Source: Calditrichaceae bacterium (GTDB lineage Bacteria; Calditrichota; Calditrichia; Calditrichales; JBFXGD01). Taken from it: a stretch of DNA of 47,270 bases. The DNA lies in NCBI GenBank assembly GCA_050178385.1, contig JBFXGD010000007.1:1-47270 (forward strand). The letters are read 5' to 3'. The translations under genes were made by a program, and so were the position numbers. Below the pieces are notes generated by a model that was not told the DNA's origin, searched no databases, and was given only the letters and a program-made list of their open reading frames with translations. This document shows positions 922 through 29,057 of this stretch, piece after piece. Positions within the stretch are counted from its first letter, which is position 1; every line of letters starts with the position of its first letter.

Positions 922-939
922 CGTTTATACCTCTCTATA

Positions 940-10591: not shown

Positions 10592-11422
10592 ATGGAAGAA
10601 ATTCGAATTGCACATAGCCCGGATTCTGATGACGCCTTTATGTTTTACGCGCTCGCGAATGATGTGTTTGATACCGGTAACCTGAAGTTCACACATATTT
10701 TAAGTGATATCGAGACTCTTAATCAAAAAGCCATGAATGGCGAATATGAAGTTTCTGCAATTTCTATTCATGCTTATCCATATGTTGCGGATAAATATAT
10801 CCTCATGCCAACCGGATCAAGTATGGGTGATAAATACGGACCGATGGTCGTTTCCAAAAAGAATCTTAATGCCCGCGATCTCCAGAACGTTAAAATCGCT
10901 GTACCCGGAACCCTGACCACCGCCTTACTCGCGCTCAGGTTATATAATCCGCTTATCGATTATGATATAGTCCCGTTTGATCAGATCATTCCAAAAGTAC
11001 TTTCCGGCGAATATGAAGCCGGTTTGATTATCCATGAGGGACAGCTCACTTATGCCGAACAGGGTTTGAACAAAATAGTGGATATGGGAGAATGGTGGTA
11101 CAAAGAGACGGGTCTTCCTCTGCCTCTTGGAGGAAATGTGATACGCCGTGATCTCGGCTCAGTGCTCATGCGCGAAGTATCGGATTTCATAAAGCGCAGT
11201 ATTCAATATTCTCTCGATAACAGAAAAGACGCGCTGAAATACGCCCTGAAATTTGCCGGAGAGATGGATCCAAAATTGGCTGATAAGTTTGTCGGGATGT
11301 ATGTCAACCACTGGACTCTTGACTATGGCGAGAAAGGCAGGAAAGCGATTAAAACTATCCTGAAACGAGGTTTTGAAGCCGGTATTATCGATCATGAAAC
11401 AGAAGTTGAATTTCTTGATTAA
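10592..11422 (+). CDS. mqnD: 1,4-dihydroxy-6-naphthoate synthase (futalosine menaquinone pathway), MqnA/MqnD family
   Basis: HSPDSDDAFMFYAL, DIETLN, IIHEGQLTY, WWYKETGLPLPLGGN, GMYVN. Confidence 0.88.
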   Translation: MEEIRIAHSPDSDDAFMFYALANDVFDTGNLKFTHILSDIETLNQKAMNGEYEVSAISIHAYPYVADKYILMPTGSSMGDKYGPMVVSKKNLNARDLQNVKIAVPGTLTTALLALRLYNPLIDYDIVPFDQIIPKVLSGEYEAGLIIHEGQLTYAEQGLNKIVDMGEWWYKETGLPLPLGGNVIRRDLGSVLMREVSDFIKRSIQYSLDNRKDALKYALKFAGEMDPKLADKFVGMYVNHWTLDYGEKGRKAIKTILKRGFEAGIIDHETEVEFLD

Positions 11423-12355: not shown

Positions 12356-13297
12356 ATGAAAAAAGAATATAATCTCGGGAAAGCAACCCGTCAGGCCTAT
12401 GGCGAATCCCTTGTTGAACTTGGCAAAACAAATGAGAATATTGTCGTCCTTGACGCTGATTTATCAAAATCAACCTATTCAAACAGGTTTCAGGACGCGT
12501 TTCCGAACAGATTTTTCAACATAGGTATCGCCGAGGCCAATATGATCTCAATTGCGGCAGGCCTCGCGGCAGGAGGAAAAATTCCGTTCGCGAGCAGTTT
12601 TGCCACATTTTTAATGAGCAAGGGTTTCGACCAGCTTCGTCAATCCGTTGCATATCCTAATTTCAATGTAAAGATATGCGGATCTCACTCGGGTATCAGT
12701 ATCGGCGAAGACGGGCCTTCGCAGATGGGTATCGAAGATATCGCGCTTGCCTGCGCGTTACCCGGCTTTACTGTTGTTATCCCTGCCGATGAAGTCGCGG
12801 TCAAACAGCTGATGCCTCAGATTTTGAATCACAAAGGTCCTGTTTATATAAGAACCGGCCGGCCGAAGTCTGCTGAAGTGTATAATGATCACTCAAAGCT
12901 GGAACTTGGCAAAGCAAATTTGCTCAGGGATGGCAGTGATATCACCATCGCGGCCATGGGTTTAATGGTCGTTGAAGCCTTAAAGGCGGCCGATGAACTG
13001 GAAGACCTGGGTATTTCCACGCGGGTTGTTGATTTTCATACTGTTAAGCCCATAGATAGAGAAATGGTGGCAAGCTGCGCGAGGGAAACCAAAGCGATCT
13101 TATGTGTCGAGGAACATCTGCTTGACGGCGGCCTTGGAAGCATCGTATCCCGGGTTGTAACTGAAACTGCTCCGGTTAAAATGGGATTCATCGGTTTGGA
13201 ATCATACGCCGAATCCGGCACGCCGGATGAACTTCTGGATCGTTATGGCCTGAGAGCGGTAAATATTGTCGATAAAGCCAAAGAATTGCTTAAATAA
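12356..13297 (+). CDS. Transketolase, C-terminal subunit
   Basis: DADLSKST, GIAEANM, GEDGPSQ, GPVYIRTGR, EEH. Start moved to ATG 12356 to remove overlap with the upstream subunit. Confidence 0.93.
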   Translation: MKKEYNLGKATRQAYGESLVELGKTNENIVVLDADLSKSTYSNRFQDAFPNRFFNIGIAEANMISIAAGLAAGGKIPFASSFATFLMSKGFDQLRQSVAYPNFNVKICGSHSGISIGEDGPSQMGIEDIALACALPGFTVVIPADEVAVKQLMPQILNHKGPVYIRTGRPKSAEVYNDHSKLELGKANLLRDGSDITIAAMGLMVVEALKAADELEDLGISTRVVDFHTVKPIDREMVASCARETKAILCVEEHLLDGGLGSIVSRVVTETAPVKMGFIGLESYAESGTPDELLDRYGLRAVNIVDKAKELLK

Positions 13298-13329
13298 AAA
13301 AAGACTGCCCGCGGGCAGTCTTTTTTTTT
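13296..13329. terminator. Bidirectional intrinsic terminator
   Basis: A7-GACTGCC-CGCG-GGCAGTC-T9 between convergent genes. Confidence 0.9.
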
Positions 13330-13338
13330 CTTATAATG

Positions 13339-13788
13339 CTAAATCCCGTGACAATTTGTTCCTGTATCTCCGCAAGAACTTGATGGTCTTGCAAGCGAAT
13401 TCTCACCGCTGTGGCATTTGTTGCATGTGGTGACCGATTCATTGAGAACACCTTTCACAAATTGGCCATGGAAAACAGGACCGGCGAGTGTCCAGCCACT
13501 CGGGTGAGGATAGCTGGCGCGAGGATAATCTTTATGACAATCCACACAGAATGTTCCCGCCTCCGCGGACAGAATATTTTCTCCATGACATGATTTGCAG
13601 GAAGTTGCTCCTGCTTCAGCCACTTTATTAGAGTGGAAAACTTCGGCCTTGACCACGGCATTATCTCTAATTGTTATTTCGCTCCATCCATCAGGGTGCG
13701 TAACACTGACGACCGGTGAAGTATCTTCGGAACATGCCAGAATTCCGAGAACGAACAATAACATAAATGCGTATCCAAATACTCTCAT
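13339..13788 (-). CDS. Small multiheme c-type cytochrome lipoprotein (3 CXXCH plus a C-terminal CX6CH)
   Basis: Lipobox ILAC; CKSCH, CVDCH, CNKCH, CGDTGTNCH; repeated HPxGW. Confidence 0.85.
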   Translation of the reverse strand: MRVFGYAFMLLFVLGILACSEDTSPVVSVTHPDGWSEITIRDNAVVKAEVFHSNKVAEAGATSCKSCHGENILSAEAGTFCVDCHKDYPRASYPHPSGWTLAGPVFHGQFVKGVLNESVTTCNKCHSGENSLARPSSSCGDTGTNCHGI

Positions 13789-13831
13789 CTCTCTATTCCT
13801 TTGTTAGTAATATTATGATTTTTTTTATTAT

Positions 13832-16603
13832 TTAAATTTTATATCCAAATAATACTGAATATATAATTAATAGTATCAGTACAATTCCTATTGTAAGAAA
13901 GGTAAATCCCAATACATGAATAAACCGCTCCCTGCGTTTCGATATGTATTCTTTCACAACCATCTTTTTTAATGCGCCGCTTTTCTTAAGTTCTGCATAA
14001 TCTTCGGGACGATCTTTCATATATTCTTCAATGGGAACAAGCCCTGTAAATATTACTTTATCCATCGGGAAGGCTTCGGGTCTCAGATGTGTATTAAAAA
14101 AATGAATCGTAAAAATGAACCCAACGGCCAGCAGCGCCTCATCACTGTGAATAATTGTAGCCACGTTAATCAGCCATCCGGGGAAAAATTTTGTGAAAAA
14201 TTCAGGGAACCAAAGCATCAAGCCCGATAATCCGATCACCGCCACGCCCCAAAAAACCGCGAAATAATCAAATTTTTCCCAGTATGTCCATTTCCCGTAA
14301 TCCGGCCGTTCTCCCTTTCCCAGAAACCATTTAAGAGTTCCCCAGAAATCGGCAGCATCTTTTTTATTGAACATCATGGAATCCCGTCCAAATATAAAAT
14401 CTTTCCATGGCGTCTTGCGGCTGATTTTTCTTTTTATCAACTGGTAGAGATGACTTGTAAAATAACCCGCCGTCAATATGGCCGCAAACCTGTGAATCCA
14501 TCCGGCTGCCTCCACACCGCCGACTAATTTCGACAGGTATCCGGCCCAGGGCATACCCGAAAACTTTAGCATCATCCCGGTTAGCGCGAGCAAAATAAAA
14601 CTGATAATTACAAATATATGTGTGAGCCTCTGTGAAAATTCAAAGCGCCGTATGTAATATCTTGTCTGCGGTTCTTTTTTTTGTTTCTGCCTTTCTCTAA
14701 GATGACGGAAAGAGCGTGGAAGCCACAAAAGCGTATGTATGCCGAAAAAACCGAATACGCTTACAAGCAGGATTGTCATCGCCCAGTATGTATAATAAAG
14801 GATCGGATATTTTACCGGATCATGATGAGTGGCATGCGTCAGATATCCCGTAAATCGCTGATTCGCGTCATCATGACATTTTTGACAAGTATTCACGATA
14901 TGATGCAGCCCGACACTGGAATTCGGATCATTGATACCAAAAATAAGATGTGAATTATGGCAGTCTGAACATTTCGCCGATTTTAGATAACCAAGCTGGT
15001 ATGTTTTTCCATGCATGGTCTGCAAATAAGTCTCGGAAAGTTCTTTATGGCAGGTTCCGCATTGATCGGTTACCTCGGTCATAAACTGGTCTTTCTCCAC
15101 TTCGGTTATCTTGTGTGAAGAATGACACTGTGTGCATGTCGGGAGCTTTTCCATTTCCCGGTCATCCACTGAGAAATGAATGCTTTTTGTATAATCCTTA
15201 TAGATTCCCCTATGACATGTGGCACAGGTAGCCGGAATATTTTTGGGATGGACAGATGAACGGGTATCCTCGTGATTGAGCTCCATATGCGCGGTATGAC
15301 AATCCGTGCAAACCGCGCTCGGCAGCAACCCCTTCTCGGTCAGGCCCCGGCCGTGAACGCTTTTTGAATAATCGAATAACGCGTTTGTTTGTGATAAATG
15401 CCGGGTCTCTTCCAGACTGCTGTCTGAACGGTGGCATTCCCCGCACAACTTTGGTATGCTCGCCCTGTACGTATTGGATGTTTCATCCAGTGATGATTTT
15501 GTATCATGATAACCATGGCAGGCGGTACAATACGGTACGTGATTATTTCCCTCCTTGTACCCTTTCCCGTGCCCGCTGGCCATGTATTCTTCGCCTATCT
15601 TTGTATGGCAGCCCGAACAATCAACAGGTCCAGCCGTTTTACACGGCCGGTCCAATTGCGGGTTAACATCCGAATGGCATTTTACACAGCTAACTTCATT
15701 ATGAACCGATTCAGAGATAGTGGTTTTTGTAACCTGCAGATTAATAATTTCGCCATTCTTGATTTTGTGGATATTCTGATCATCGTGGCATTTAAGACAT
15801 GATTTGTCAGATACTTTTAATGTTAGCGATTCCTTTCGCGCTTTATGCGGGAGATGGCAATCGGTGCACGCCGGGATAGAACCGGGATCTCTGCTCCATT
15901 TTTCACCTTCAATCACTTTGACATGAACATCTTCGATTCGGCTGTGACATTTCATACAGGTGGATGCGATATTCCTTGGTGAAATAGATGATTTAGTATT
16001 AGTATGGGGCAAAATAAAGTGACTTCCGTGACAATCGGCGCACGCGGCGCTGACAATCAATCCTTTTTTAAATAAACCTTCTCCATGAATACTCAGGCTG
16101 TAATTTTCAAGAATATTATGTTCTGTGATATTATAAACACGCGCGACCGGGGCGCCCTCTCTGTGGCATTTACCGCAAAGAAAGGGGATGTTCATTTTAT
16201 ATGATGGAGATTTTGGGTTCTCTGGCGAGAGAATATCATGTTTTCCATGACACTCACTGCAATTAGGGGCATATATTTGTTTTTGCTTGAGAGCCATTCC
16301 GTGAATTCCTGAATCGAATTCAAGCTGCGTATCATCATGACAATCGCCACAGTGGACAGGAGTTAACCTTTCAGGATGAGGGAATTCTTCTACATCCGCG
16401 TCGGGGTGGCAACTAATACACTCCACATCTTTATGCACCGAATTTTTTAAAACCGACGGATTGATATAAAGCGAAACCATCCTGTTTCCGCGCTGAACTG
16501 TCAGCTCGGGATCAGAATGACATTCAAGGCAGGTTTCGTCATCGACAGCAAATAGATTACTGCCGGCTAACAAAATTAATAATGTCAGCCAGATTCTCAT
16601 CAT
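13832..16603 (-). CDS. 19-heme cytochrome c fused to an FdnI/HydC-type diheme cytochrome b membrane domain (CbcL-like quinol oxidoreductase)
   Basis: Signal peptide; 19 CXXCH counted; TM domain with RLTH, WIHR, IIHSDEA, TIHFF and [12 protein letters not shown]. Start uncertain (16600-16630). Confidence 0.9.
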
Positions 16604-16647
16604 ATTCATCCATGGTACTCTGGAACACAATCGCTTTATTTATAAAG

Positions 16648-16729
16648 ATCCGGTTGCCGCTCCAAACAATTTCCAATCATCAGTGACCGGAAATTATACT
16701 GCTATATTCGTTTGGAGCGGCAACCGGAT
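16648..16729. repeat. Perfect 20-bp inverted repeat (stem-loop) between the two cytochrome c/b genes
   Basis: ATCCGGTTGCCGCTCCAAAC (16648-16667) and GTTTGGAGCGGCAACCGGAT (16710-16729), 42-nt loop. Confidence 0.9.
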
Positions 16730-16739
16730 AATAAATACC

Positions 16740-18662
16740 CTATATTTTGGGTTGATGTGAATTGTCTTTTTGCTCCATCAGCTTTTCATACTCAAGCGGA
16801 TGATGATGCTTCATTTCATCCAAAGTAATTTTCCCATCCATCCAGGTCGTGCTCATCGGATATTTTTCAGGATGGAGAATAACAAAGAACCAGTGCCAGA
16901 TTACAATCGCAAGAGTAGCCAGCCATGCCTCATAATAATGAATCACCTCCGAGGTTTCAAATAGCCAGGTCGGGAGAAAACCTATAAAAATTTCAGGGAA
17001 CCACAACACCAGACCGCTTGCCCCCATCACAATCACACCCCAAATCAGAGCCAGATATTCAGCCTTTTCGGCATAATCAAATCGCCCGAAACGAGGTCTA
17101 TCCTTACTCAGTCCCAGATAAAAAGAAATATTTTTCCATAATCCGATCACATCATCCAGCGTCGGCATTAATTCTATTAGTTCTCTTCGTCCTTTCTGAG
17201 TGAACAAAAGATATCCCAATTGAACCAATGAGATTGTACCCATAACAACCGCCGCGACTCTGTGGGTTACGGATCGTATGACCTCTGTCATACCGAGTGA
17301 GACAAGTAGTTTTACCCAGCCCGCTTCCGGAAATTTCAGCGCAAAGCCTGTAATCGCTAGCAAGGTAAAACTAAGAAACATCAACATGTGCTGATAAACT
17401 TCAAACGACTGAAACCTCGGCACACGTTCCGCGTATTTGTCCGCTTTTCTTTTTTCACGGATATGATGAACAAGGATGATCAGATTGTGGATGAACATTC
17501 CGCCGATCACAACAACAATCATCCATATATATAAGTTTTTAATGAAGAAAGCGATCGGATTTCTGACCTGCTGATTTATCGGATGCACATCAATCTTAAC
17601 AAAACTGTCCGAAATATTTGCATGGCAATTGCCGCACGTTTCCTGCAGATGCGCGGGATGAACACTCGCCAGACTATCCGATTTTGATTTGATCGCGTGT
17701 GTTTCATGGCAGCTTGTACAGGTTGCCACCTCAGGAGATCCTTTCAGCGCGGCCAAACCGTGATAGCTTTTCATATAGGAATCCAGCCGCTCAGCATCCA
17801 ATCCGAATCTCGACATGAGTGTTGGAGAAGAATGACAGCTTGCGCAAAGTTTCGTGGACTGAAGAAGACCGCTGGTTGTCGCGTTTTTATCCGATGCCAT
17901 CTTTATATCATGTTCACCGTGACAATCTGTACAAACCGGTGATTCGCCATGTCCACGCTGTAATGAATTCCAGTGAATACTGTCATGATATTCATCTTTT
18001 TCACTTTCATGACAAGTACCGCATGTTTCCGGTATATTCAGGGCATTCAAATGTGATTCAGGATTAATGGCCGGTAAGATGGCATGATAATCATGACAGT
18101 CCGTACAGGTTGCCACTTCTGCCTCGGGATCTTCGGTAATCATTTTCCCGTGAACACTTTCAAGATAACTTGCAACCGGATTAACGTTTCTTCTGCCAAA
18201 CAGTCGAATAACTTCCGGTTTCGCATGGCAAGCCGCGCATGTATAAGCTAGATTTCCGTGATGGACCTTTGACTCCGGCTCATCTGAACTCAGAATATCG
18301 TGTACCCCATGACAGTCCGTACAGCTGGCGGCGGCTTCCGACCCCTTTGCCAGCGCCTGACCGTGAATGCTCCGGTTATATTCTTCCTGGGCATCCTCAT
18401 GGCAGTTGGCACAATTCACAGGAGTCAGAATCTCCTCGTGCGGTAATTCTTCAATCCCCTGATGACAATCGATGCACTCAAATCCACCATGAATGGAATT
18501 CTCGAAATTTTCCGCATGTACAAAAACAGAAACTTCCGTAGTGTCATTGATCATCCTTGTCAGATCCGGATCGCTATGGCATTCCATACAATCTTCGTTG
18601 GACTGTCCAAAAGCAAATACCGCGGCTGCGAATAGCAATAATAGCACTCGTTTCAAAAGCAT
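16740..18662 (-). CDS. 11-heme cytochrome c fused to a diheme cytochrome b membrane domain (CbcL-like)
   Basis: GAGG RBS before ATG 18662; signal peptide; 11 CXXCH; TM His in YQHM, THRV, IHYYEA, IWHW; FGRFDYAEKAEY. Confidence 0.9.
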   Translation of the reverse strand: MLLKRVLLLLFAAAVFAFGQSNEDCMECHSDPDLTRMINDTTEVSVFVHAENFENSIHGGFECIDCHQGIEELPHEEILTPVNCANCHEDAQEEYNRSIHGQALAKGSEAAASCTDCHGVHDILSSDEPESKVHHGNLAYTCAACHAKPEVIRLFGRRNVNPVASYLESVHGKMITEDPEAEVATCTDCHDYHAILPAINPESHLNALNIPETCGTCHESEKDEYHDSIHWNSLQRGHGESPVCTDCHGEHDIKMASDKNATTSGLLQSTKLCASCHSSPTLMSRFGLDAERLDSYMKSYHGLAALKGSPEVATCTSCHETHAIKSKSDSLASVHPAHLQETCGNCHANISDSFVKIDVHPINQQVRNPIAFFIKNLYIWMIVVVIGGMFIHNLIILVHHIREKRKADKYAERVPRFQSFEVYQHMLMFLSFTLLAITGFALKFPEAGWVKLLVSLGMTEVIRSVTHRVAAVVMGTISLVQLGYLLFTQKGRRELIELMPTLDDVIGLWKNISFYLGLSKDRPRFGRFDYAEKAEYLALIWGVIVMGASGLVLWFPEIFIGFLPTWLFETSEVIHYYEAWLATLAIVIWHWFFVILHPEKYPMSTTWMDGKITLDEMKHHHPLEYEKLMEQKDNSHQPKI

Positions 18663-18672
18663 TAATTCCTCA

Positions 18673-19560
18673 CTACTTTCCATGACAGGTGACACAAACT
18701 ACATCCGTATAAGCATCATTGTGACAACTCATACAGTTATCAAAATCAGACCGGCCGACTCTCGCATGTCTGCCACCGTTTCCCGGAACCGTATTTGACC
18801 AGTTTGCAAAAGCATGGTTTTGGGGCATAACTCTCTCTGTCTGATGGCAGTCGATGCAGAATGAAAACTCTTCATGGCAGGTCAAACAATTGTCTTTATT
18901 CCCTTTGGCCTGCATCCCGTGAGTCTGTCTGAAATTAAGCGGATGTACTTCACGATTCAAATTGTCGCCTTCATGACAAGTCGTGCAATAACTATTCTGA
19001 TGACAGTGGTTGCATGAAGTTGTCTGTGACATCATACCGTGGTCTTTTTTCCAGTTAAGCCGGTGTGTCTCAGGCACAAATTTCATATCTGATTCATGAC
19101 AGCTTAAACAAGCCTGCTTATTCTCACTGTAATCCGGATTTTCATGGCAAGTGGCGCAAACCTGATTATCGGGTATATGCGAGGATCCAACTTTTTCTTT
19201 TTTATCTATCCCCTGATGGCAGGTCAAACAGTTTTTATCACCTGACACATGTGTTTTATGAGGAAATTTACTTCCATAATCAACGACACGCTGGGCGACA
19301 CCCGGTTCATCGGTATTTGTGTGGCACATAGCGCATTCTACTTCATCCGGATCATGGCAGCTATTACAAGTCTCCATTGCCGGGAGCAAATTATCCGTCT
19401 GCGAAAGACTGCTACTGGCATTGGCATGACAATCTGTGCAGGCTGCGCCGACATCTTCCGCATGCAATTGATGCGAGAATATTATCTGATCCGGAGCCTG
19501 AGCATTGGCAAAACCGGTCAGACAGAACATTACGATGGTTACAACTGATATGACTTTCAT
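18673..19560 (-). CDS. Periplasmic 12-heme c-type cytochrome (cytochrome c3-like repeats)
   Basis: Signal peptide ending ANA; 12 CXXCH in 295 aa; FSHQLH and FPHKTH c3-type motifs. Confidence 0.92.
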   Translation of the reverse strand: MKVISVVTIVMFCLTGFANAQAPDQIIFSHQLHAEDVGAACTDCHANASSSLSQTDNLLPAMETCNSCHDPDEVECAMCHTNTDEPGVAQRVVDYGSKFPHKTHVSGDKNCLTCHQGIDKKEKVGSSHIPDNQVCATCHENPDYSENKQACLSCHESDMKFVPETHRLNWKKDHGMMSQTTSCNHCHQNSYCTTCHEGDNLNREVHPLNFRQTHGMQAKGNKDNCLTCHEEFSFCIDCHQTERVMPQNHAFANWSNTVPGNGGRHARVGRSDFDNCMSCHNDAYTDVVCVTCHGK

Positions 19561-19573
19561 ACGACAGCACCTT

Positions 19574-20770
19574 TTACCAAATGAAATGGATATGGTTTAA
19601 TATACGTTGATCCGAGTCTTTCTCCCGGTTTGTCAGCCACTGATATTCCAGATCAGCGCTCCAGTTTTTTGAGAAACTATATGATGCCCTGACAGCATTT
19701 GCCAACTGATCTTCGTACTCATACACTTCCTCAAATCGGTATTGAGAATAGTCAACACTGAGTGATGCCAGAAGCTTTGGTGTAACCTGGTATCCGTAAT
19801 CGACCGTTACACCTGCCTGATCACCCAGATCACCGGTTTCAAAAATGAATCCCAACGCTCCATTAGAATTATTCAGTGTCAGCAGTACCCTCTGTCCGTC
19901 TGCGTCTTCCATCTGGAGAAACTGATATTCCGCGCTAAGATAGTATTCATCTGTCAGCGCGTAAGAACCGTTAAACGCGCTTAGGGTGTACTCTTCCAAA
20001 TCAAAAATACGGAAATATGAGTCACCATAAATTTGCGGATGCTGCTGCTTAAAGTAAAGGTTAGCGCTAAATTTATTCGACACGCGATATCTTCCGGACA
20101 AGTAGAAACGATGCAGGCGGTCATTTACCAAATCATAATGAGTCTGCAACATAATCCTCAGATTATTGACCGATGAGTTATATAAATTCAAACCTGCGAT
20201 TTGCCACTGCGTTTCACCGGAATTCGTTTTTTGAAGATATACACCCTGAAAATCTGTGTCATAAAAATTCTTGTATTTCAGGGCCGTCCCATAAACAGCC
20301 GCATCATCTGATTCGTAGATCTCAAAAGCTTTGTCAAAATGAGATTCGACACCGCCATAAAGTTGCCATTCCACGTTTTTGATCGGACGAAAGATCATAT
20401 TCAGGCCATCAATACTCCCCAGAACCAACCCGGGATGAAGAAATTGCCTTCCTAATTCAAAATCCATCAGATTATTAAACATTCCTTTGCCGGATATGGA
20501 CATGCGGTATGCGTTAAATCTTCTTTCATCCGCAAGATCTTCATCAAGATCGGTGAGAATCCTGCCTGAAACATTAAATCTAAGATCTCCCCACTCTTTC
20601 ATTCTGGCCTGAAAACGGACGGTCTGATACAAACGTGTATGCGAAGTGGTATCTTCATATGAATATACCGTATTCGAAATGCGTCCGTTTGTCTGAATAC
20701 CCTGGGCAAAAAGACTCGTTGAAAGAAAACCCAGTACCATAATGCTAGATAAAACAATTTTCGTTTTCAT
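19574..20770 (-). CDS. Outer-membrane beta-barrel porin of a porin-cytochrome conduit
   Basis: Signal peptide; Tyr/Phe/Gly-rich alternating strands; C-terminal aromatic residue (HIHFIW); flanked by multiheme cytochromes. Confidence 0.8.
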   Translation of the reverse strand: MKTKIVLSSIMVLGFLSTSLFAQGIQTNGRISNTVYSYEDTTSHTRLYQTVRFQARMKEWGDLRFNVSGRILTDLDEDLADERRFNAYRMSISGKGMFNNLMDFELGRQFLHPGLVLGSIDGLNMIFRPIKNVEWQLYGGVESHFDKAFEIYESDDAAVYGTALKYKNFYDTDFQGVYLQKTNSGETQWQIAGLNLYNSSVNNLRIMLQTHYDLVNDRLHRFYLSGRYRVSNKFSANLYFKQQHPQIYGDSYFRIFDLEEYTLSAFNGSYALTDEYYLSAEYQFLQMEDADGQRVLLTLNNSNGALGFIFETGDLGDQAGVTVDYGYQVTPKLLASLSVDYSQYRFEEVYEYEDQLANAVRASYSFSKNWSADLEYQWLTNREKDSDQRILNHIHFIW

Positions 20771-20792
20771 AACTCTACTCTTATGATTAGGT

Positions 20793-20826
20793 AAAAAGAG
20801 GCGGATTCAACATGAATTCCGCCTCC
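20793..20826 (-). terminator. Internal terminator-like / stabilising hairpin after the Sec-cytochrome gene
   Basis: Minus strand GAGGCGGAATTC-ATGTT-GAATCCGCCTC-TTTTT. Confidence 0.6.
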
Positions 20827-20841
20827 GGATTGGCTCAACAC

Positions 20842-22233
20842 TTATCTTTTTGGTACTACAACATTTTGATTTGCTGCTTTTTCCTGGTCTAGAAATTGCT
20901 GAAGACTTGGATCGCTTACGCCAATTGTCAGAGAATCTTCACGCAGGAAATATTTATCGCTGTTTCCAAGGAAAGTACCAACATTATGACAGGTTCCTCT
21001 ACCGCAGGAAACTCCGCCGGTCGTGTCGGTCATAACCGTCCAGCGCTGTATATTATGAGGTGTCGCGTATTTCCATGTCGGTTCCGCAGTAAAATTTGCA
21101 AGCGAAATACTGCCGCCCCAGTTGTCATAGGTATCCGGAACAATCGGAATATGTCTTACCGGAGTAAAATCATATGGCCGGGTGGCGCTTTTAAGATAAT
21201 TTTTACCAATTTTAAAGGTGAGATAAGATGACCCGGTGATACCTTCACCGTTAACATGACAGCCGTTACAATTTTTGTAGGCTTGTGAATGGCAGGTCTG
21301 GCATGATAATTTGGATCCGCTTCCTGACCAATGCTGATTGTGATAACTATTTGAAGTTGCTACGTCAGCATGACAGTCTTCGCACTTAGCGATGATCTGA
21401 GAATCTTCAATATAGCGATAATCATACGGGTTACCGTCGCCATGCATTTCGTGACCGTCATGACAGAACATGCAATCATATCCTTTTGATGAATGGACAT
21501 CCATGAAGATCCCTTTATCACTGTGAGCGCCGGTATATTCTTCTCCAACGCGTGAGCCGTGACATGCGGTGCAGTTGTTTGACTGACTGGGCGTCCTTCT
21601 GAAGGTGTGCCCTGATACCAGTCCGCCATTGACCGATCGCGGTTTACTGATATGGCATTCCCCGCATGTGGCGTGACATTTCGCGCAATCTTTTGTAAAT
21701 CCGGCCACCATTGCGTCATCCGTCCTAAGATCCATTCCGCCGGACCGCACTTCAAATCTCTGGTGGTAGCCTTCCTGTGTAAGGTGCAGACTTGTTTCAA
21801 AACTTGAAACTTGCTGCGAATGGCAGGGACCGCAATAGGTCTCAGCATCTGATAAAGACGGATATGGCACTAAATCGGTATGTGCATCCGTTTTTGTAAA
21901 TTTTTCGGGATTGCCCTTATGACAGGCGGTACACCCTAGATTTCCGTGCGTGGAAGTAAGAAATTCTGCTCTAACAAAAACACGTTCCCATGCCTCAACC
22001 TGAGGCACTTCGCCGCCTCAGCCCTCGCCGGTTTCACCGCCGGTATCGGGAAGAGCATCGGCAACCTTAATCAACAAATCTTTGTCTGTATGACAGCTGA
22101 CACAACTGGTTTCATCTACAGAAGCGAATTTCTTCGTTTCCACAGGATACTTTTCTTCACATGCTGTCATCCATGTGACCGCTAAAACGAAGAGGACAAG
22201 AAGAACAATTTTTCTAACCATGACCTTATCCAT
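20842..22233 (-). CDS. Predicted selenocysteine-containing multiheme c-type cytochrome lipoprotein (463 aa; 10 CXXCH plus CX4CH; Sec at codon 72)
   Basis: ORFs 22018..22233 and 20842..22008 are in one frame, joined by TGA-GGC-GGC-GAA. Only the N-terminal part has the lipoprotein signal (MTAC). A SECIS-like hairpin follows the UGA. Confidence 0.8.
21990..22020 (-). promoter_or_regulatory. UGA codon plus bacterial SECIS-like element
   Basis: UGA-GGCGGCGAA-GUGCCUCA-GGU-UGAGGCAU: 8-bp stem, G-first apical loop 17 nt after UGA. Confidence 0.75.
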
Positions 22234-22270
22234 TTTTTTGTGTTTATATCATAGTAAGTTTAATCATATC

Positions 22271-22306
22271 AAAAAACAAACCAGGCTCATTTTCTGAGCC
22301 CAGTTT
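22271..22306 (-). terminator. Terminator-like hairpin between the rhodanese and Sec-cytochrome genes
   Basis: Minus strand AAACTGGGCTCA-GAAAA-TGAGCCTGGTTT-GTTTTTT. Confidence 0.6.
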
Positions 22307-22344
22307 ATATAACATTTAACATCAAGAAAGATCAAACATTCATT

Positions 22345-23382
22345 CTATGGATTAACTCCGGCTGTTACCGGGTAGTCATGACCGGTTGCTTCGTTAAATG
22401 GAGCCACTCCTGCTCTCGCGGCTGTATTCTTCGTCCACGACATAATGCCATGTTTTAAATTAACAGCATTATATCCAAGAAGATTCAAAGCGGTTGTAGC
22501 GATACCACCGGTATGCCCTGTATAACAATATACAACAACGAGACGAGTCGGATCAATCTTTTTTAAATTATCTTTAGTGGCGATTTCTTTCCAGGGAATA
22601 TTGATTGCGCCCGGGATATGACCAATTGCATAATGGTCAGCGGAACGTACACTTACGATCTGCGGATCATTGCTAGTGTCACCATCATTAATCACTCCAT
22701 GAAGAACATCCGCGTTATAGGTCGCCGACCCTAATGAAGCATAAAGATCCGAAGACGCCAATATAATATCATCAGCATTTGCTGAAGAACTGAATTCAGG
22801 ATTCGCCAGGTCATATGTTGAAGAAGCATTAATAGTCGTTTCCAGTTCATAGTCAAAACTGGTCTCTTCGCTGAACGGCGCGACACCGCCTCTGGCCGCG
22901 TCATCTTTTGTCCAGTCCATTATACCAAACTTGACATTATAAGCGTCATAACCAAGCGCTCGCAAAATAGTAGTTGCAACTGCGCCCGTATGGCCTGTAT
23001 AACAATAAACGGCAATCTTACCACTATTCTGCACAGAAGCGATTCTTGCCTCAAGAGCTGTAAGCTTGTCTGCTTTTGCGATATCTCTCCAGTTAATATT
23101 GATCGCGCCCGGGATATGGCCGATTTCATAATGAGACGCGCTTCTGACGCTGACTATTACGTAATTGTTTGTATCATCACCATCATTAATATTATCATAC
23201 AAAACCTGTGCTGTCACGATAGGTGTAACATCAACATTTACACTCGCGTCCACAATCGGCTGGACTGCATCAAAATCACTAATAACCGTGCTGCTGCCGC
23301 CGTCATCACTGTCACTGGAACAGCCGACAAACATCGCAAACATTAAAGCCATAATGAAATACATTAATCTTTTTACCAACAT
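22345..23382 (-). CDS. Tandem-domain rhodanese (sulfurtransferase) lipoprotein
   Basis: Lipobox FVGC plus Ser/Asp linker; two repeats each with GHIPGAINI and YCYTGHTG active-site loop. Confidence 0.92.
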   Translation of the reverse strand: MLVKRLMYFIMALMFAMFVGCSSDSDDGGSSTVISDFDAVQPIVDASVNVDVTPIVTAQVLYDNINDGDDTNNYVIVSVRSASHYEIGHIPGAININWRDIAKADKLTALEARIASVQNSGKIAVYCYTGHTGAVATTILRALGYDAYNVKFGIMDWTKDDAARGGVAPFSEETSFDYELETTINASSTYDLANPEFSSSANADDIILASSDLYASLGSATYNADVLHGVINDGDTSNDPQIVSVRSADHYAIGHIPGAINIPWKEIATKDNLKKIDPTRLVVVYCYTGHTGGIATTALNLLGYNAVNLKHGIMSWTKNTAARAGVAPFNEATGHDYPVTAGVNP

Positions 23383-23473
23383 AATACACCCCTCGCAATT
23401 AAATAGTTAATATTTAAATAATGGAATAAGGCTCTTTCCTATCCCCCCTTGTGAAATAATTATCTTTTGATGA

Positions 23474-23490
23474 TGCAAAGGCTGTGCCAA
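23474..23490 (-). promoter_or_regulatory. sigma54 (RpoN) -24/-12 promoter of the cytochrome operon
   Basis: Minus strand TTGGCAC-AGCCT-TTGCA, exact consensus about 90 nt upstream of the rhodanese start. Confidence 0.85.
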
Positions 23491-23533
23491 TCAGCGGAGC
23501 CTTAGTTAATGGCGTTAACTAATTGTTTTAGAA

Positions 23534-23546
23534 TATCAAAAAATTG
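23534..23546. promoter_or_regulatory. IHF binding site
   Basis: TATCAA-AAAA-TTG matches WATCAANNNNTTR, located between the sigma54 promoter and the candidate enhancer. Confidence 0.6.
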
Positions 23547-23563
23547 ATTTACTAATGCCAATT

Positions 23564-23678
23564 TGAAACAATCTGATTCACACATTCTCAAGTTCGTTGA
23601 TGAATAAGGGTTTTATAGCAATGAACATCGTCTGAAACATTTTGTTTCATTTTCTCGGTTGGAACAATTTTTGGAACA
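23564..23678. promoter_or_regulatory. Candidate enhancer-binding-protein sites
   Basis: TGAAACA-TTT-TGTTTCA (23633-23649), TGAAACA-ATC-TGATTCA (23564-23580), plus two TGGAACA half sites. Confidence 0.55.
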
Positions 23679-23786
23679 CATATTTGTCCAATCTTTATTA
23701 AATCCTTTCACTTAAATGGCGAATTGGCATGTATTTTTTATTTTCTGTATATTTCAGAACCTATCACTATTTCAAAGCGATTCTAA

Positions 23787-24461
23787 ATGAAGACAATTTT
23801 ATGTTTTGCCGCGCATCCCGACGATCTTGAATTCTCATGTACAGGAACTTTACATCAATTTTTAATAGAGGGGTATGAGGCTGTTTTTGTCATTTTGACC
23901 AATGGAGAAAATGGTTTCAAGGCAAAAAGCGATTCCCGTGAAGAACGCGTTGAAACCAGAAAAAAAGAACAACTTGATGTAGCAAAAAAATTAGGGCTTA
24001 AAGATGTCATTTTTCTTGATAAAATAGATGGCTTCCTTGAGTACGACGAGGACTTACGCAGCAGTTTAGTAAAGATAATAAAACAGTATAAGCCGGAAAT
24101 TATTTTTTCATTCGATCCCGCGAATAATGACTTTGACAGCCTTAATCTTTTTCACCGCGACCACCGCACCGCTGCCATTGCAGTCTTTGACGCCTGTTTT
24201 GCCGCTAAAAACAATTTAATGTATCCCGGACCTCAGCATAAAGTTGAGAAGATTTATTTTTTCGCGACAAATAAACCAAATCATTTTGAAGATATTTCTG
24301 ATTTGATTGAATTCAAACTTGAGCTGCTCCGATGCCATAAATCCCAGTTCCCGGATTTTTCAAAAGTCGAAAAGTATCTTAAGGAAAGGGTTTCCGTCAG
24401 TCACGGGTCATACAAATATTGCGAAGCATTTCGTGTTATCGAAGTAAAACAGCTGACATAA
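23787..24461 (+). CDS. PIG-L/LmbE family deacetylase
   Basis: AAHPDDLE, TNGENG, HRDH, HKSQF, EAF. Confidence 0.92.
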   Translation: MKTILCFAAHPDDLEFSCTGTLHQFLIEGYEAVFVILTNGENGFKAKSDSREERVETRKKEQLDVAKKLGLKDVIFLDKIDGFLEYDEDLRSSLVKIIKQYKPEIIFSFDPANNDFDSLNLFHRDHRTAAIAVFDACFAAKNNLMYPGPQHKVEKIYFFATNKPNHFEDISDLIEFKLELLRCHKSQFPDFSKVEKYLKERVSVSHGSYKYCEAFRVIEVKQLT

Positions 24462-24647: not shown

Positions 24648-26015
24648 TTATTTCATCAGTAATCTCATAAAATCCGCCACGTCTTTTTCCTTTTCGATAC
24701 TCATGATGGCATCCACTAACCGGTCACGCTTTGCTTTCCCAACCACCGGTATAACCATGGAATCAAATTTTGAAAGCAGCGTTTTTTCATCCATTGGTTC
24801 ACGGTAATCTCCAAGGGGATAATCAAGTATAATTTTATGTTTTTTACCGTCTTTTGTTTTGATTTCCGCGCTGGCCTGCTTAAGCCCCGGAAAGGTTTTT
24901 TCAAATTCCGGATCAGCAACCACATTAATTTTGGGAAGAAAAGACCGCACTTCCTTATCCATGATTTTTTCTGTTTTAAAGGATGCCGGAGTAACACTGC
25001 CGTCAACGATCGCCGCCGATATACAGTAAGGCAGGCTGTGATCTGCCGTTTCCCTGGTTCTTGGATCATATTTTGTCGGGTCGGCAAGAATATCAGCGGC
25101 TCGGGCTACAGTGCCTATTGTTACTTCATCGATATCATCTTTGGAAATGTTTTGTTCCTTCATTATTTTTATTACGGCTGATAGCGGTGTATGGGTCAGC
25201 GCTTCGGTAGGGAACGCTTTCATTGAGCATTTATTGATGCGGAAAGTCTCTCCCAACCCGTCAGTAAGGATATTCAAATCGAAACGTCCGCCAAATGTAT
25301 CAGTCAACCCTTCTTTTCCATCGATGACATGCGCGGGGCCTTCATAACCTCTCTTTGCCAGCAGAGCTGAATATAATCCGGCCTGAGTAGCCATCGGATC
25401 AACCGTGTTCTTCATCATCGTTAATTTCCCTGCCGTAACCGCTCCCAATGTGAGATTATGGCTGCCGGAAATCCCGATGGCGTGAACCATCTCATCCACA
25501 GATAAATCAAGTACTTTACCAGAAACCAACGGCGAAGCAAACTGTGTAAGCGTGGCATGGTGCCATTTACGCTCCCTGATACCCGGTATCGCGAATTCAC
25601 ACATCCGCATTTCCCATTCATAGGCAAGGACAATCGCCGTAATCAGATCTTTACCGCTTTTGTGAAGCACTTCCGCGGGCGTCAACGCGGCCGGTATGAT
25701 ATCACTTGGATGTGACGGGTCCTGATCCCAGTAAATATCATTATAATCCAGCGCTCTGATCATCAATGAATTTAAGAGCGCCTGGTTGATCATGGGTAAT
25801 TTTTTATCTGAATTGATGACAGTCGCTTCCGCTTTACCGCCCATTTCATTATAAAAATCGAGCATAATTTCAACATCTTCTGTCTGACTGCCACCATAAG
25901 CGCAACCGATCGAGTCGAGCAGAAACCTTTTTACGTTGGTGACGGTCTCTTCTGTCAGATTTTCATATTTCAGTTCTTTTGTAAATTCAGCAAGTTTATA
26001 AGTGATATTTTGCAT
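24648..26015 (-). CDS. prpD: MmgE/PrpD family protein (2-methylcitrate dehydratase-like)
   Basis: LLDSIGCA, RALDYND, HPSDII, RETADHSLPY. Confidence 0.85.
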   Translation of the reverse strand: MQNITYKLAEFTKELKYENLTEETVTNVKRFLLDSIGCAYGGSQTEDVEIMLDFYNEMGGKAEATVINSDKKLPMINQALLNSLMIRALDYNDIYWDQDPSHPSDIIPAALTPAEVLHKSGKDLITAIVLAYEWEMRMCEFAIPGIRERKWHHATLTQFASPLVSGKVLDLSVDEMVHAIGISGSHNLTLGAVTAGKLTMMKNTVDPMATQAGLYSALLAKRGYEGPAHVIDGKEGLTDTFGGRFDLNILTDGLGETFRINKCSMKAFPTEALTHTPLSAVIKIMKEQNISKDDIDEVTIGTVARAADILADPTKYDPRTRETADHSLPYCISAAIVDGSVTPASFKTEKIMDKEVRSFLPKINVVADPEFEKTFPGLKQASAEIKTKDGKKHKIILDYPLGDYREPMDEKTLLSKFDSMVIPVVGKAKRDRLVDAIMSIEKEKDVADFMRLLMK

Positions 26016-26113
26016 GTTTCCTCCGCCGCAAAACAGGGCGGGGTAAACGAAAGCTTACCCCGCAGTTATTAATTTTTGTCAATATTTAAATGATGTAAAG
26101 GTTCCGGATAGAA

Positions 26114-27232
26114 TCAGAGATTCCGCGCAACTTCCTCAGCGACTTCGAGCGAGGTATTCTTCCCGTCCATATCGTAGGTTTTTACTTTCCCTGCTTTAAT
26201 TACTTTTGCGATGGCGGCTTCAAGCCTTTCAGCATCTTTCTTTTCTCCCAGCCAGTCCAACATCAGTTTTGCGGTCAGGAACATGGCCATTGGATTCACC
26301 TTATACTGCCCGGCGTATTTTGGTGCCGAGCCGTGAGTCGGTTCAAACACCGCGTAATCATCACCGATGTTTCCGCTGGAGGCGAATCCTAAACCGCCGA
26401 CCAACTGAGCCGCCAGATCCGAAAGAATGTCACCAAACATGTTTTCTGCAACCAGCACATCATAATCAAAAGGATTTTTCAGCAGCCACATCGTCTGGGC
26501 GTCAATATTGGTTTCCCACATCTGAATATCAGGATATTTTTTTGCCACTTCACGCGCTGTCCGCACCATTAACCCGCCTGTTTCACGCAGAACATTCGGC
26601 TTATCCACAACTGTGACCGATTTCCGACCGTGTTTTTTGGCGTATTCAAATGCCTGAGTGACAATATTATCGCATTTCTGCCGACTCATAATTCTTGTGG
26701 ACATAGCGAGATTATCGAGTCCGTACTGACCGAATTTTTTCATTTTCGGATGATTTTTACTCAAAACGTCAAACACTTCCTGCGGAATCGGATGAAATTC
26801 AACTCCACCGTACATTCCTTCCGTGTTTTCACGGAAAATTACCAGATCAATGCCCTCTTTGAAGTTCAGAGGATTGCCCGGATACGCTTTACAAGGCCTT
26901 AGATTTGTATGCAGGTTAAATTCCTGACGTAACCGAACGATCGGTGAGAAATACACAAATCCTTTATCTGCCAGCTCTGCGTCAAGTTCCTTTGCCGCTT
27001 CCTCTTTTGGCTTGGAGGTAATCGCCCCAAAAAGCGCGCAATCCGTATTCTTCATCATATCAATCGTACGCTGCGGCAGAGGTTCGCCTTCGTGCCGCCA
27101 GAATTCCCAGCCGATATCACCATGAATATATTCGGCATCAAATTTCAATGCGTCCAAAACTATACGCGTCGCTTCCATCACATCGTTACCTACTCCGTCA
27201 CCGGGGAGCCAGGCGATTTTATACTTCGACAT
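26114..27232 (-). CDS. Isocitrate/isopropylmalate (beta-decarboxylating) dehydrogenase family
   Basis: PGDGVG, NLRP, RENTEGMY, DKPNVL, NMFGDILSD, FEPTHGSAPKYAG, VNP. Confidence 0.92.
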   Translation of the reverse strand: MSKYKIAWLPGDGVGNDVMEATRIVLDALKFDAEYIHGDIGWEFWRHEGEPLPQRTIDMMKNTDCALFGAITSKPKEEAAKELDAELADKGFVYFSPIVRLRQEFNLHTNLRPCKAYPGNPLNFKEGIDLVIFRENTEGMYGGVEFHPIPQEVFDVLSKNHPKMKKFGQYGLDNLAMSTRIMSRQKCDNIVTQAFEYAKKHGRKSVTVVDKPNVLRETGGLMVRTAREVAKKYPDIQMWETNIDAQTMWLLKNPFDYDVLVAENMFGDILSDLAAQLVGGLGFASSGNIGDDYAVFEPTHGSAPKYAGQYKVNPMAMFLTAKLMLDWLGEKKDAERLEAAIAKVIKAGKVKTYDMDGKNTSLEVAEEVARNL

Positions 27233-27375
27233 TTTTCACCCCTTTTGATTTTTTACAATCCGGCCCGTAAAAGCGCCGAATAATATTATAGGATTATTTA
27301 TATTTTGCCACAATTCATATTCATTACAGCAGAGACTTTTAACTATTCATTTGCAATAAGTCAGTCGCCGCCAAT

Positions 27376-27912
27376 TTATTTTACGAGCTCAAAATCAATG
27401 AAATCCACATGGTGAAAAATAATTGCTTCCGGTGAGCGTTTTTCACCCGCGCCCTCTTTTGAATGAACCGCGATGATGTGCATAACTTCTGACGGAATAT
27501 CATGTTTGAAAGCCAGTCCCACACCGCTGAACGGATGCCGGATGTGCTTTCCGTATTCGCTTTTAATGATGGTCCCGTCAGCCTTTTTTTCAAACTCAAA
27601 CAGCTTCCCCACATCCGCGAGCAGTGATCCGGCGATCAAATAATCTCTGTTTACCGGTGTTTTTCTTGAACCATATGCATCATCAAGAACCTTATCACAA
27701 GCGATGGCCATTTTACAGCAGGTTCTGACATGTTCGATAAAATGTATTTTTACATTATCGGCCAACAGGGTAAACGGAATGGATTTCAGCTCCGCGTTTG
27801 TCCAGTTTCTGTATTCTACCGCTTCTGACCAGCACGCAATGACCTTCTCTCTTAGTTGTTTTTCTTTTATTTCATTAATTTCAGGCAATAGTTCCAAAAC
27901 CTGACCGCTCAT
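27376..27912 (-). CDS. HD-superfamily (HDIG/MptB-like) protein with AD in place of HD
   Basis: IEHV...LIAGSLLADVGKLFE...RHPFSG...IIAVHS...HHVD. Confidence 0.8.
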   Translation of the reverse strand: MSGQVLELLPEINEIKEKQLREKVIACWSEAVEYRNWTNAELKSIPFTLLADNVKIHFIEHVRTCCKMAIACDKVLDDAYGSRKTPVNRDYLIAGSLLADVGKLFEFEKKADGTIIKSEYGKHIRHPFSGVGLAFKHDIPSEVMHIIAVHSKEGAGEKRSPEAIIFHHVDFIDFELVK

Positions 27913-27966
27913 AAATCATTTCCTTTCATTAATTATAGTCAAATGACACAAAATCCTGCTCCCACC

Positions 27967-28218
27967 TTCTTACTTCTTACTTCTAACTTCCTACTTCTTA
28001 CTTCCTACTTCTTACTTCTAAACCACTCCCGAACCGGACAAAGATCCTTCCAGGATGACATTTTCGAAGGAATCAAAACCGTTCCAATCTTCTTTCTTTT
28101 ATCTTTTATCTTTTATCTTTTTTCTTATCCTACCCTCTTCGGGCGCGAGCATCACACCCCCTACTCTTAACTCTTAACAATTCTTACTTCCTACTTCCTA
28201 CTTCTTACTTTTTACTTC
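27967..28218. repeat. Three blocks of heptamer tandem repeats (TTCYTAC, TTTTATC)
   Basis: About 8 units at 27967-28022, about 4 TTTTATC-type units at 28097-28124, further units at 28164-28218. Confidence 0.9.
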
Positions 28219-28985: not shown

Positions 28986-29057
28986 GATTGTCTCCTGTAT
29001 TTCGTTGACTTTTCGATCATTCAAAATGAAATATTTAACCGTTTATTATCACCTATA

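Follow-up and report, generated by a model that had tools for sequence, protein, structure and literature searches.

The window analysed here is the whole of a 47,270-nucleotide stretch of DNA from a Calditrichaceae bacterium (assembly GCA_050178385.1, contig JBFXGD010000007.1, positions 1 to 47,270 of the forward strand), with a G+C content of 38-47% across its length. Its minus strand carries, from position 23382 down to 13339, seven same-direction open reading frames (ORFs) with intergenic gaps of -23 to 111 nt, which we describe as a candidate operon for sulfur respiration centred on a multihaem cytochrome that contains a predicted selenocysteine (Sec) and on a rhodanese. In operon order, the products are:

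22345..23382, minus strand: tandem-rhodanese lipoprotein, 345 aa; PF00581 in two stretches, E 6.5e-35
20845..22233, minus strand: predicted 11-haem selenocysteine lipoprotein cytochrome (Sec-cytochrome), 463 aa with the TGA read through; 10 CXXCH and one CX4CH
19574..20770, minus strand: predicted outer-membrane beta-barrel, 398 aa, signal peptide, C-terminal ...HFIW; 22 strands in the model
18673..19560, minus strand: periplasmic 12-haem cytochrome, 295 aa, signal peptide; 12 CXXCH
16740..18695, minus strand: CbcL-like predicted quinol oxidase, 651 aa, signal peptide; 11 CXXCH; PF01292, E 2.3e-15
13832..16630, minus strand: second CbcL-like protein, 932 aa; 19 CXXCH and a cytochrome b domain
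13339..13788, minus strand: small lipoprotein cytochrome, 149 aa; 3 CXXCH and a C-terminal CX6CH

The seven proteins contain 0, 10, 0, 12, 11, 19 and 3 CXXCH motifs respectively (55 in total), together with two non-canonical haem motifs, the CX4CH of the Sec-cytochrome and the CX6CH of the small lipoprotein, both of which align with positions where homologues carry a haem site. Lipoboxes are present in the rhodanese (FVGC), the Sec-cytochrome (MTAC) and the small protein (ILAC), and ordinary signal peptides precede proteins three to six. A Pfam scan found no molybdopterin domain in any of the seven proteins. An MqnA/MqnD-family gene is located at 10592-11422. A preliminary description of this DNA had reported the seven co-oriented genes, the same tally of haem motifs, sigma-54 control, an mqnD gene nearby and the lack of a molybdopterin subunit in the operon, and our annotation agrees with it on each of these points.

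Selenocysteine decoding and the rhodanese partner

The second gene of the operon contains an in-frame TGA, followed by a potential selenocysteine insertion sequence (SECIS):

22018..22020, minus strand: in-frame TGA read as selenocysteine, the Sec72 codon
21992..22006, minus strand: SECIS-like hairpin GCCUCA-GGU-UGAGGC, with a 6-bp stem that begins 11 nt past the UGA

The encoded protein has its lipobox cysteine at position 25 and Sec72 in the motif GEG-U-GGE (context TGGETGEG-U-GGEVPQVEAWER). A search of 41 related genomes returned 32 strong matches to the cytochrome, 29 of which have exactly one in-frame TGA and three of which have none. An alignment of 17 sequences revealed invariant glycines on both sides of the TGA column (G-x-G-U-G-G), with Cys at this position in the forms that lack the TGA. 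A wider scan, with one genome per species, identified at least 584 stretches matching the Sec-cytochrome; among the best 80 of these (the 80 loci hereafter), a single invariant column holds TGA in 62 and TGC or TGT (Cys) in 18. The genome encodes both SelB (372 bits) and SelA (514 bits), each scoring above its cut-off. The ORF downstream of the TGA has no signal peptide, so that termination at this codon would preclude haem attachment.

The hairpin following the UGA is conserved in structure as well as in position. Across 15 sequences, 84.4% of the alignment cells are paired, compensatory changes occur at three of the pairs, and the loop is either GGU or GUU; none of 500 shuffles paired as well and slid registers reached at most 57.8%. 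These figures come from a hairpin that was picked by eye and then counted on those same sequences, and the comparison of Sec and Cys genes on 80 other loci is the fairer test: 51 of the 62 Sec genes pair at five or six of the six positions, whereas four or more pairs form in only two of the 18 Cys genes. These two Cys-type genes (L044 and L048, with 6 and 4 of 6 pairs) fit a recent conversion from Sec to Cys. RNAalifold, run on 66 nt around the TGA, did not recover the hairpin, and an Rfam search of positions 13000-24000 at E values up to 1 gave sub-threshold matches alone, mostly on the terminator that closes the operon, with no SECIS family among them. Judged by the conserved column, the hairpin and the presence of SelA and SelB, the in-frame TGA is a genuine Sec codon, in line with the Sec-containing multihaem lipoprotein of the preliminary description.

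All 11 haem sites are invariant in the alignment of the 80 loci, including the CX4CH at residue 410, which corresponds to the eleventh haem site in 80 of 80 aligned homologues. Nine histidines outside the haem motifs are invariant (H96, H118, H150, H209, H247, H264, H298, H301 and H393), as are R163, R228, R360, D245 and Y319. Sec/Cys72 is likewise invariant and, in 74 of the 80, is the sole Cys or Sec outside the haem motifs after haem 1. With 11 haem sites and nine such histidines, two haems are left without a conserved histidine partner, and one of these could be ligated by Sec/Cys, much as a Cys does at the active haem of MccSep, TsdA and SoxA, or else be open. Because the cytochrome has no second thiol, the partner of an Se-S intermediate would have to be a cysteine persulfide on the rhodanese.

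Pfam assigns the Sec-cytochrome to generic cytochrome c7 and nothing more specific, and the only NCBIfam match is one of 39 bits to the N-terminus of ExtM, for which the cut-off is 800. By these profile searches the protein lies outside any named family. The best match of the family alignment in a profile search of solved structures had an E value of 0.013, and seven of 17 family members match the pentahaem domain of MtrC/MtrF (PF22113). Acidic residues follow the lipobox cysteines of the cytochrome (CEEK) and the rhodanese (CSSDSDD); we take these stretches to resemble the surface-export signal of Bacteroidota, a likeness that is not decisive.

The rhodanese contains two PF00581 domains, each with a six-residue loop C-Y-T-G-H-T (CYTGHTG in both active sites). 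Its lipobox Cys21 is followed by SSDSDDGG, and this cysteine and those of the two loops are the only three in the protein, which is thus predicted to be a rhodanese sulfurtransferase with two active cysteines.

Proposed conduit proteins, conservation and control

No Pfam or NCBIfam family matched the 398-aa protein, and its homologues form 131 clusters, every one of which is named 'hypothetical'. A homologue from Caldithrix abyssi (P0170) is 48% identical. The preliminary description had called this protein a porin and had set its fold beforehand as a test. AlphaFold2, supplied with a 52-row alignment of homologues, produced a plug-less beta-barrel of 22 strands (pLDDT 90.2, pTM 0.78) whose longest loop is about 17 aa, and a Foldseek search with this model returned OM (outer-membrane) barrels exclusively, none of them close (TM at most 0.58).

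We modelled the barrel together with the 12-haem cytochrome, each partner being supplied as an alignment. The median ipSAE was 0.65 (0.65, 0.56 and 0.71) compared with 0.02 for the best of three controls; 116 of 157 solved complexes attain that mark, as do two of 215 mismatched pairs. At least 64% of the contacts were common to the runs, and the partner pLDDT was at least 71. Residues 140-293 of the cytochrome touch alternate strand residues that face the lumen, around the full circumference of the barrel. The model accordingly predicts a cytochrome whose C-terminal half occupies the lumen and whose N-terminal half hangs into the periplasm. What the model shows is a likeness to a porin-cytochrome complex, not binding. 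As modelled, the 398-aa protein is an OM beta-barrel that could hold a cytochrome, as a conduit would.

Both c/b fusion proteins match PF01292 and the formate dehydrogenase gamma subunit after their haem region and have four to five hydrophobic helices there. The C-terminus of the 651-aa protein is a cytochrome b561/FdnI-like domain with about five transmembrane (TM) helices (formate dehydrogenase gamma, E 7.6e-11). For the 932-aa protein the listed TTG start is uncertain and an ATG 7-10 codons further on is possible. By domain content, both have the layout typical of CbcL, with an N-terminal multihaem c region and a C-terminal HydC/FdnI-like b-type membrane domain. The CX6CH of the small lipoprotein falls at the place of a fourth CXXCH in five orthologues (L040, L041, L043, L054 and L055), and for this reason we count the protein as tetrahaem. 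Its match to ExtS is weak (16 bits).

The phylum names of the 80 loci are the submitters' labels for metagenome-assembled genomes (MAGs), taken from record titles. They comprise Calditrichota, KSB1, Marinimicrobia, Gemmatimonadota, Bacteroidota/Ignavibacteria, Krumholzibacteriota, Eisenbacteria, Planctomycetota, Cloacimonadota, Thermodesulfobacteriota, Chloroflexota and Pseudomonadota. The closest among the matches listed is from a Calditrichaceae MAG (L038; 94% protein identity). Synteny was compared among 16 loci from the same order or class. Seven of them keep the order rhodanese, Sec-cytochrome, barrel and 12-haem cytochrome and then have the small-cytochrome and CbcL-like genes, and six have a variant arrangement of Sec-cytochrome, rhodanese, an unrelated 398-aa protein with a signal peptide, 12-haem cytochrome and CbcL-like genes; of the rest, one is cut by a contig end and two have a Cys-type cytochrome and rhodanese alone. 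The genes thus co-occur elsewhere, a point on which the preliminary description had made its reading depend. The variant 398-aa protein (L026:9074-10270, genome G010) has the same length as the barrel of the window, with an E value between the two of 0.035, which is not significant; it may be a non-orthologous replacement of the barrel. The corresponding position of the operon is occupied in this way in L029, L030, L031, L032 and L037 too. Divergent from the variant operon in L026 is a gene for a Tat-signal 4Fe-4S protein with a membrane anchor (L026:13200-14102), which may belong to another quinol-linked complex.

The rhodanese gene adjoins the cytochrome gene in 74 of the 80 loci. Two active-site loops are present in 61 of these 74 rhodaneses and a lipobox in 61, and Chloroflexota rhodaneses have up to six active-site loops. 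A barrel homologue is present in 16 of the 80 loci, with the 12-haem gene adjoining it in 14 and the other two cut by contig ends. The operon recurs across Calditrichota and KSB1. Beyond what the preliminary description had noted, the cytochrome-rhodanese pair occurs as a two-gene unit far more widely than the conduit does. In other lineages the pair is found on its own or next to other electron inputs, namely a 4Fe-4S protein with a cytochrome b at a Dehalococcoidia locus, and NrfD with a multihaem protein at another Chloroflexota locus; such lineage-dependent input is the pattern expected of a terminal catalytic module. From this gene context, the cytochrome-rhodanese pair appears to be the conserved catalytic unit and the conduit one among several feeds.

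No fusion of the cytochrome to a rhodanese was found among the 80 loci. Related cytochromes (25% identity, E 4e-12) are fused to rhodaneses of the CYTGHTG type in P0279, P0310 and P0311, and rhodanese is present in 100% of an Atlas cluster of related cytochromes with 106 members. As they have no Sec/Cys loop, the fusions back a coupling of cytochrome and rhodanese only loosely. P0279, P0310 and P0311, which are labelled Chloroflexota, are membrane-anchored multihaem cytochromes with two or four rhodanese domains.

The following features bear on transcription of the operon:

23474..23489, minus strand: sigma-54 (-24/-12) promoter TGGCACAGCCTTTGCA, 92 nt ahead of the rhodanese ATG; an exact TGGCAC-N5-TTGCA
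23633..23649: palindrome TGAAACATTTTGTTTCA, a candidate enhancer site for a bacterial enhancer-binding protein (bEBP), about 150 nt upstream of the -24/-12 element
23564..23580: second copy of the palindrome with one mismatch, 70 nt nearer the promoter
L026:12966-12982, L027:3327-3343, L029:12210-12226, L031:2969-2985, L037:9764-9780 and L065:9418-9434: palindrome TGAAACA-N3-TGTTTCA at other Sec-cytochrome operons
13296..13327: bidirectional intrinsic terminator, a hairpin that closes the operon and separates it from the convergent transketolase gene

The TGGCACAGCCTTTGCA element is the sole sigma-54 match with no mismatches in the window, where 12 matches have at most two mismatches and about 20 would be expected by chance at two mismatches. 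An exact sigma-54 promoter also precedes the operon in G001, G028 and G025, and rpoN is encoded in the genome. The palindrome has two matches at one mismatch or fewer compared with 0.01 expected, and an exact copy precedes the homologous operon in G001, G010, G025, G031, G016, G008 and L065, including operons with the variant gene order. The form TGAAACA-N3-TGTTTCA is kept across several genera and both gene orders. The palindrome probably marks the site of a dedicated sigma-54 activator encoded outside the window. The exact promoter element, rpoN and the conserved upstream palindrome argue that the operon is sigma-54-controlled. Sub-threshold Rfam matches to leaders and small RNAs at 13296-13327 are the terminator itself and were rejected. 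The operon is flanked upstream by a divergent PIG-L family gene and downstream by a split, convergent transketolase gene.

Proposed sulfur reduction and its alternatives

In August 2026, ExtKL of Geobacter was described under the name MccSep as a tetrameric periplasmic protein that carries five haems, has a His/Cys haem and contains Sec325 (PMC13510729; published systems are described here and below from parts of the cited sources). It reduces polysulfide, and selenite less well, and is essential for S0 respiration (PMC13510729). This polysulfide reductase activity goes beyond what the preliminary description had drawn on and sharpens its analogy with Geobacter.

We favour, with moderate confidence, the interpretation that the locus is a sigma-54 respiratory operon in which electrons pass from quinol through a barrel conduit to a sulfur reductase formed by the Sec-cytochrome and the rhodanese. 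The two CbcL-like proteins (multihaem c with a dihaem-b-type membrane domain) would draw electrons from menaquinol, and the 12-haem periplasmic cytochrome would relay them, with its C-terminal half threaded through the plug-less 22-strand barrel in an MtrAB-like manner. The terminus of the conduit would be the lipoprotein pair of 11-haem Sec/Cys cytochrome and tandem rhodanese, with the tetrahaem lipoprotein alongside. Sulfane sulfur of S0 or polysulfide would be bound by the rhodanese in the form of a persulfide, which the selenolate would attack, and the haems would then reduce the Se-S (or S-S) bond, yielding sulfide. The result would be a molybdenum-free sulfur/polysulfide reductase, with selenite as a possible side substrate. 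The direction of flow, the surface location of the pair and the hand-over between Sec and rhodanese are what we infer from this arrangement, and the substrate, S0 or polysulfide (or selenite), is suggested by analogy with MccSep. Of the overall interpretation in the preliminary description, the anatomy and the analogy stand and the conduit has gained a model of the barrel/12-haem complex, and its chemistry, direction and surface exposure keep the conditional standing that they had.

A broader proposal is more tentative, and we give it somewhat less than even odds. The 11-haem GEG-U-GG cytochrome may represent an unrecognised selenoprotein family and an independently evolved second haem-selenium sulfane-sulfur reductase, unrelated to MccSep and always accompanied by a lipoprotein rhodanese, whose persulfide would replace the haem-ligating Cys of MccSep. 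In Calditrichota and KSB1 the pair would sit at the outer end of a porin-cytochrome wire and solid sulfur would be respired extracellularly without molybdenum, and the family as a whole would be far more widespread than MccSep. The Sec-cytochrome family appears to be undescribed. Literature searches turned up no account of the cytochrome family or of the operon, with most subscription journals and the supplements of PMC13510729 and PMC13188914 lying outside the search; a 2026 selenoproteome review covers ExtKL and an octahaem tetrathionate-reductase-type cytochrome, and its matching passages contain nothing like the window family.

Several observations weigh against sulfur reduction through a conduit. 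The operon is known here from sequence and models, and a search of sequencing runs listed no RNA run that contains it. Its proposed substrate rests on analogy with MccSep, yet no relationship between that protein and the Sec-cytochrome is detectable (hhalign probability 25% over 23 columns). In MccSep a haem with a Cys ligand works together with Sec, whereas the window protein lacks a second free Cys and must therefore use another mechanism. An AlphaFold2 model of the Sec-cytochrome, built from a 17-row alignment, had a mean pLDDT of 39.6, too low to place Sec relative to any haem. The model of the barrel complex is haem-free and, as MtrCAB has already been solved, may reflect memory of MtrCAB-type structures. 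The inspected fusions P0279, P0310 and P0311 have no Sec/Cys loop. Most loci outside Calditrichota and KSB1 have the cytochrome-rhodanese pair without an adjoining barrel. Chloroflexota are not known to have a classical outer membrane; pairs without a barrel, those of Chloroflexota included, imply that catalysis is independent of the conduit.

The scarcity of barrel genes near the pair, which has none in most of the 80 loci, would also suit a periplasmic topology with the same chemistry, in which the Sec-cytochrome and rhodanese face the periplasm, the barrel admits polysulfide or selenite, as proposed for ExtI, and the 12-haem cytochrome bridges the periplasm. MccSep itself is periplasmic, and loss of ExtI impairs reduction of selenite and tellurite (PMC13510729, PMC5877670). 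We nevertheless regard this topology as unlikely, since an open pore of 22 strands, with no plug and loops of at most about 17 aa, would be expected to leak. In the complex model, residues 140-293 of the 12-haem cytochrome pass through the barrel (ipSAE 0.65, against 0.02 for the control), the barrel and 12-haem genes are adjacent in 14 of the 14 loci not cut by a contig end, and the barrel has no sequence likeness to ExtI.

Multihaem wires are reversible, which counts in favour of a flow in the opposite direction, with extracellular sulfide, S0 or metal sulfides being oxidised and the quinone pool receiving the electrons, which could serve nitrate respiration, for instance. Relatives of CbcL include MtoC of Fe(II) oxidisers (PMC6295460), and the His/Cys-haem enzymes TsdA and SoxAX oxidise sulfur compounds (PMC13510729). 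However, the documented role of the Sec nucleophile in MccSep is reductive cleavage of S-S/Se bonds, and domain annotation of the operon and the rest of the window detected no genes for Sox, Dsr or Sqr, which makes an oxidative system rather improbable.

There is little chance that the operon encodes a general conduit to Fe(III)/Mn(IV) oxides or an electrode, with the Sec-cytochrome merely an outer haem protein and the rhodanese accessory or unrelated. The porin-cytochrome layout is that of metal reduction, seven of 17 family members match PF22113, and extHIJKL contributes to the reduction of Mn(IV) and Fe(III) oxides in Geobacter (PMC6148476), but an invariant Sec/Cys and a rhodanese adjoining in 74 of the 80 loci, across a dozen phylum labels, argue for chalcogen chemistry over plain electron egress, and most carriers of the pair have no adjoining conduit genes. 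Scarcely credible is a true stop at the TGA, which would leave two remnants of a split or decayed gene, a monohaem lipoprotein of 71 aa and an ORF of 388 aa without a leader: public gene calls do truncate the protein and the top database matches span about 83% of the query, but a single TGA in the same column in 62 of 80 loci with Cys in the other 18, a conserved frame and SECIS-like hairpin, and the SelA and SelB genes of the genome all speak against it.

How S0 could be respired without the molybdenum enzyme Psr was an open question until MccSep of Geobacter in 2026, and the present operon points to a second, unrelated and taxonomically much broader selenium-haem solution. The homologues that we saw are annotated 'hypothetical' or 'cytochrome c family' throughout. 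If sulfur reduction by the cytochrome-rhodanese pair is correct, selenoproteins would gain a new family, MAGs of Calditrichota, KSB1, Marinimicrobia, Ignavibacteria/Bacteroidota and Chloroflexota would have their sulfur-cycling potential reassigned, and the conduit would be the first of the porin-cytochrome type to end in a chalcogen-active enzyme instead of a plain electron outlet. Caldithrix abyssi has a Psr that was judged non-functional, yet it forms sulfide from both S0 and thiosulfate (PMC5317091). An operon of this type may explain that sulfide production, a lead that comes from the barrel homologue P0170.

Elsewhere in the window, the minus strand at 385-5663 encodes a PrkA kinase, a DUF444 protein and a SpoVR-like protein, a trio that forms a conserved stress/stationary-phase module. 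Genes at 24648-31600 encode MmgE/PrpD, an isocitrate/isopropylmalate dehydrogenase, a short citrate-synthase-like ORF, a TrmB-type regulator and a CitF-like citrate lyase alpha subunit, and this cluster may represent an unusual citrate or methylcitrate pathway.

Comparison with known systems

In Geobacter, the extHIJKLMNOPQS cluster comprises genes for a rhodanese, a 45-kDa porin, ExtJ, the Sec-cytochrome ExtKL, 12-haem and 10-haem cytochromes, a Rieske protein, a cytochrome b, ExtQ and a 4-haem lipoprotein (PMC5877670, PMC6148476). The window operon resembles it in combining a rhodanese, an OM barrel of about 400 aa and a Sec multihaem cytochrome of about 450 aa in one cluster. Both systems also include a cytochrome with 12 haems, a quinol module built on membrane cytochrome b and a four-haem lipoprotein cytochrome, and neither has a molybdopterin subunit. 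As a positive control, we retrieved a Geobacter-type locus with the ExtM model, on which all ten Ext models exceeded their cut-offs except ExtP (222 versus 290 bits); ExtH, ExtI and ExtKL scored 545, 690 and 627 bits. In contrast, the models for ExtH (NF040901), ExtI (NF040900) and ExtKL (NF040886, cut-off 250 bits) matched none of the window proteins at E values up to 10. The best match of the MccSep model across the whole genome was 26 bits, on another contig, and ExtJ (NF040942) had no match genome-wide at E values up to 1 in this genome of 94% completeness. BLASTP aligned the window rhodanese with the Geobacter-type ExtH over the GHIPGA motif alone and the window barrel with ExtI at an E value of 0.11. 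The rhodanese, barrel and Sec-cytochrome thus show no detectable homology to their Ext counterparts, and by these profile and pairwise searches the system is a non-homologous analogue that lies outside the Ext family, which supports the 'differently built analogue' of the preliminary description.

The two Sec-cytochromes differ in most respects. MccSep has five CXXCH haems, carries Sec325 in the DGUP loop of its Ig-like C-terminal domain, ligates a haem with a Cys and forms a soluble periplasmic tetramer (PMC13510729), whereas the window protein has 11 haems, Sec72 in GEG-U-GG after haem 1 and no free Cys beyond the lipobox, and is a predicted lipoprotein. The quinol module consists of two CbcL-like fusions here and of a Rieske protein with a cytochrome b (ExtO/ExtP) in Geobacter, and control is by sigma-54 here, compared with a divergent LysR gene there. 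Reports of the MccSep family come mainly from Desulfobacterota and Nitrospirota; members of the window family occur in Calditrichota, KSB1, Bacteroidota and Chloroflexota, among others.

The porin-cytochrome systems MtrCAB and Pcc share with the operon the adjoining genes for a haem-dense periplasmic cytochrome, a barrel and an outer lipoprotein multihaem cytochrome. The complex model likewise places the wire within the barrel, and some members of the Sec-cytochrome family match the MtrC/MtrF pentahaem domain. MtrB has 26 strands and about 700 aa, whereas the window barrel has 22 modelled strands and 398 aa and belongs to no sequence family. The outer cytochrome of the window also differs in bearing Sec/Cys and in having a rhodanese companion.

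In CbcL, a multihaem c domain at the N-terminus is joined to a HydC/FdnI-like membrane domain of b type at the C-terminus (PMC6295460). The window fusions are likened to CbcL of Geobacter, the quinol oxidase for low-potential acceptors, by this shared architecture; CbcL has nine haem motifs, compared with 11 and 19 in the two tandem paralogues here. Rhodaneses that pass polysulfide sulfur to a reductase are known from Sud/Psr of Wolinella and SbdP of Aquifex. The operon resembles these systems in placing an extracytoplasmic rhodanese beside a putative sulfur reductase, and differs from them in the nature of the partner, which is a molybdopterin enzyme there and a predicted selenium-haem protein here.

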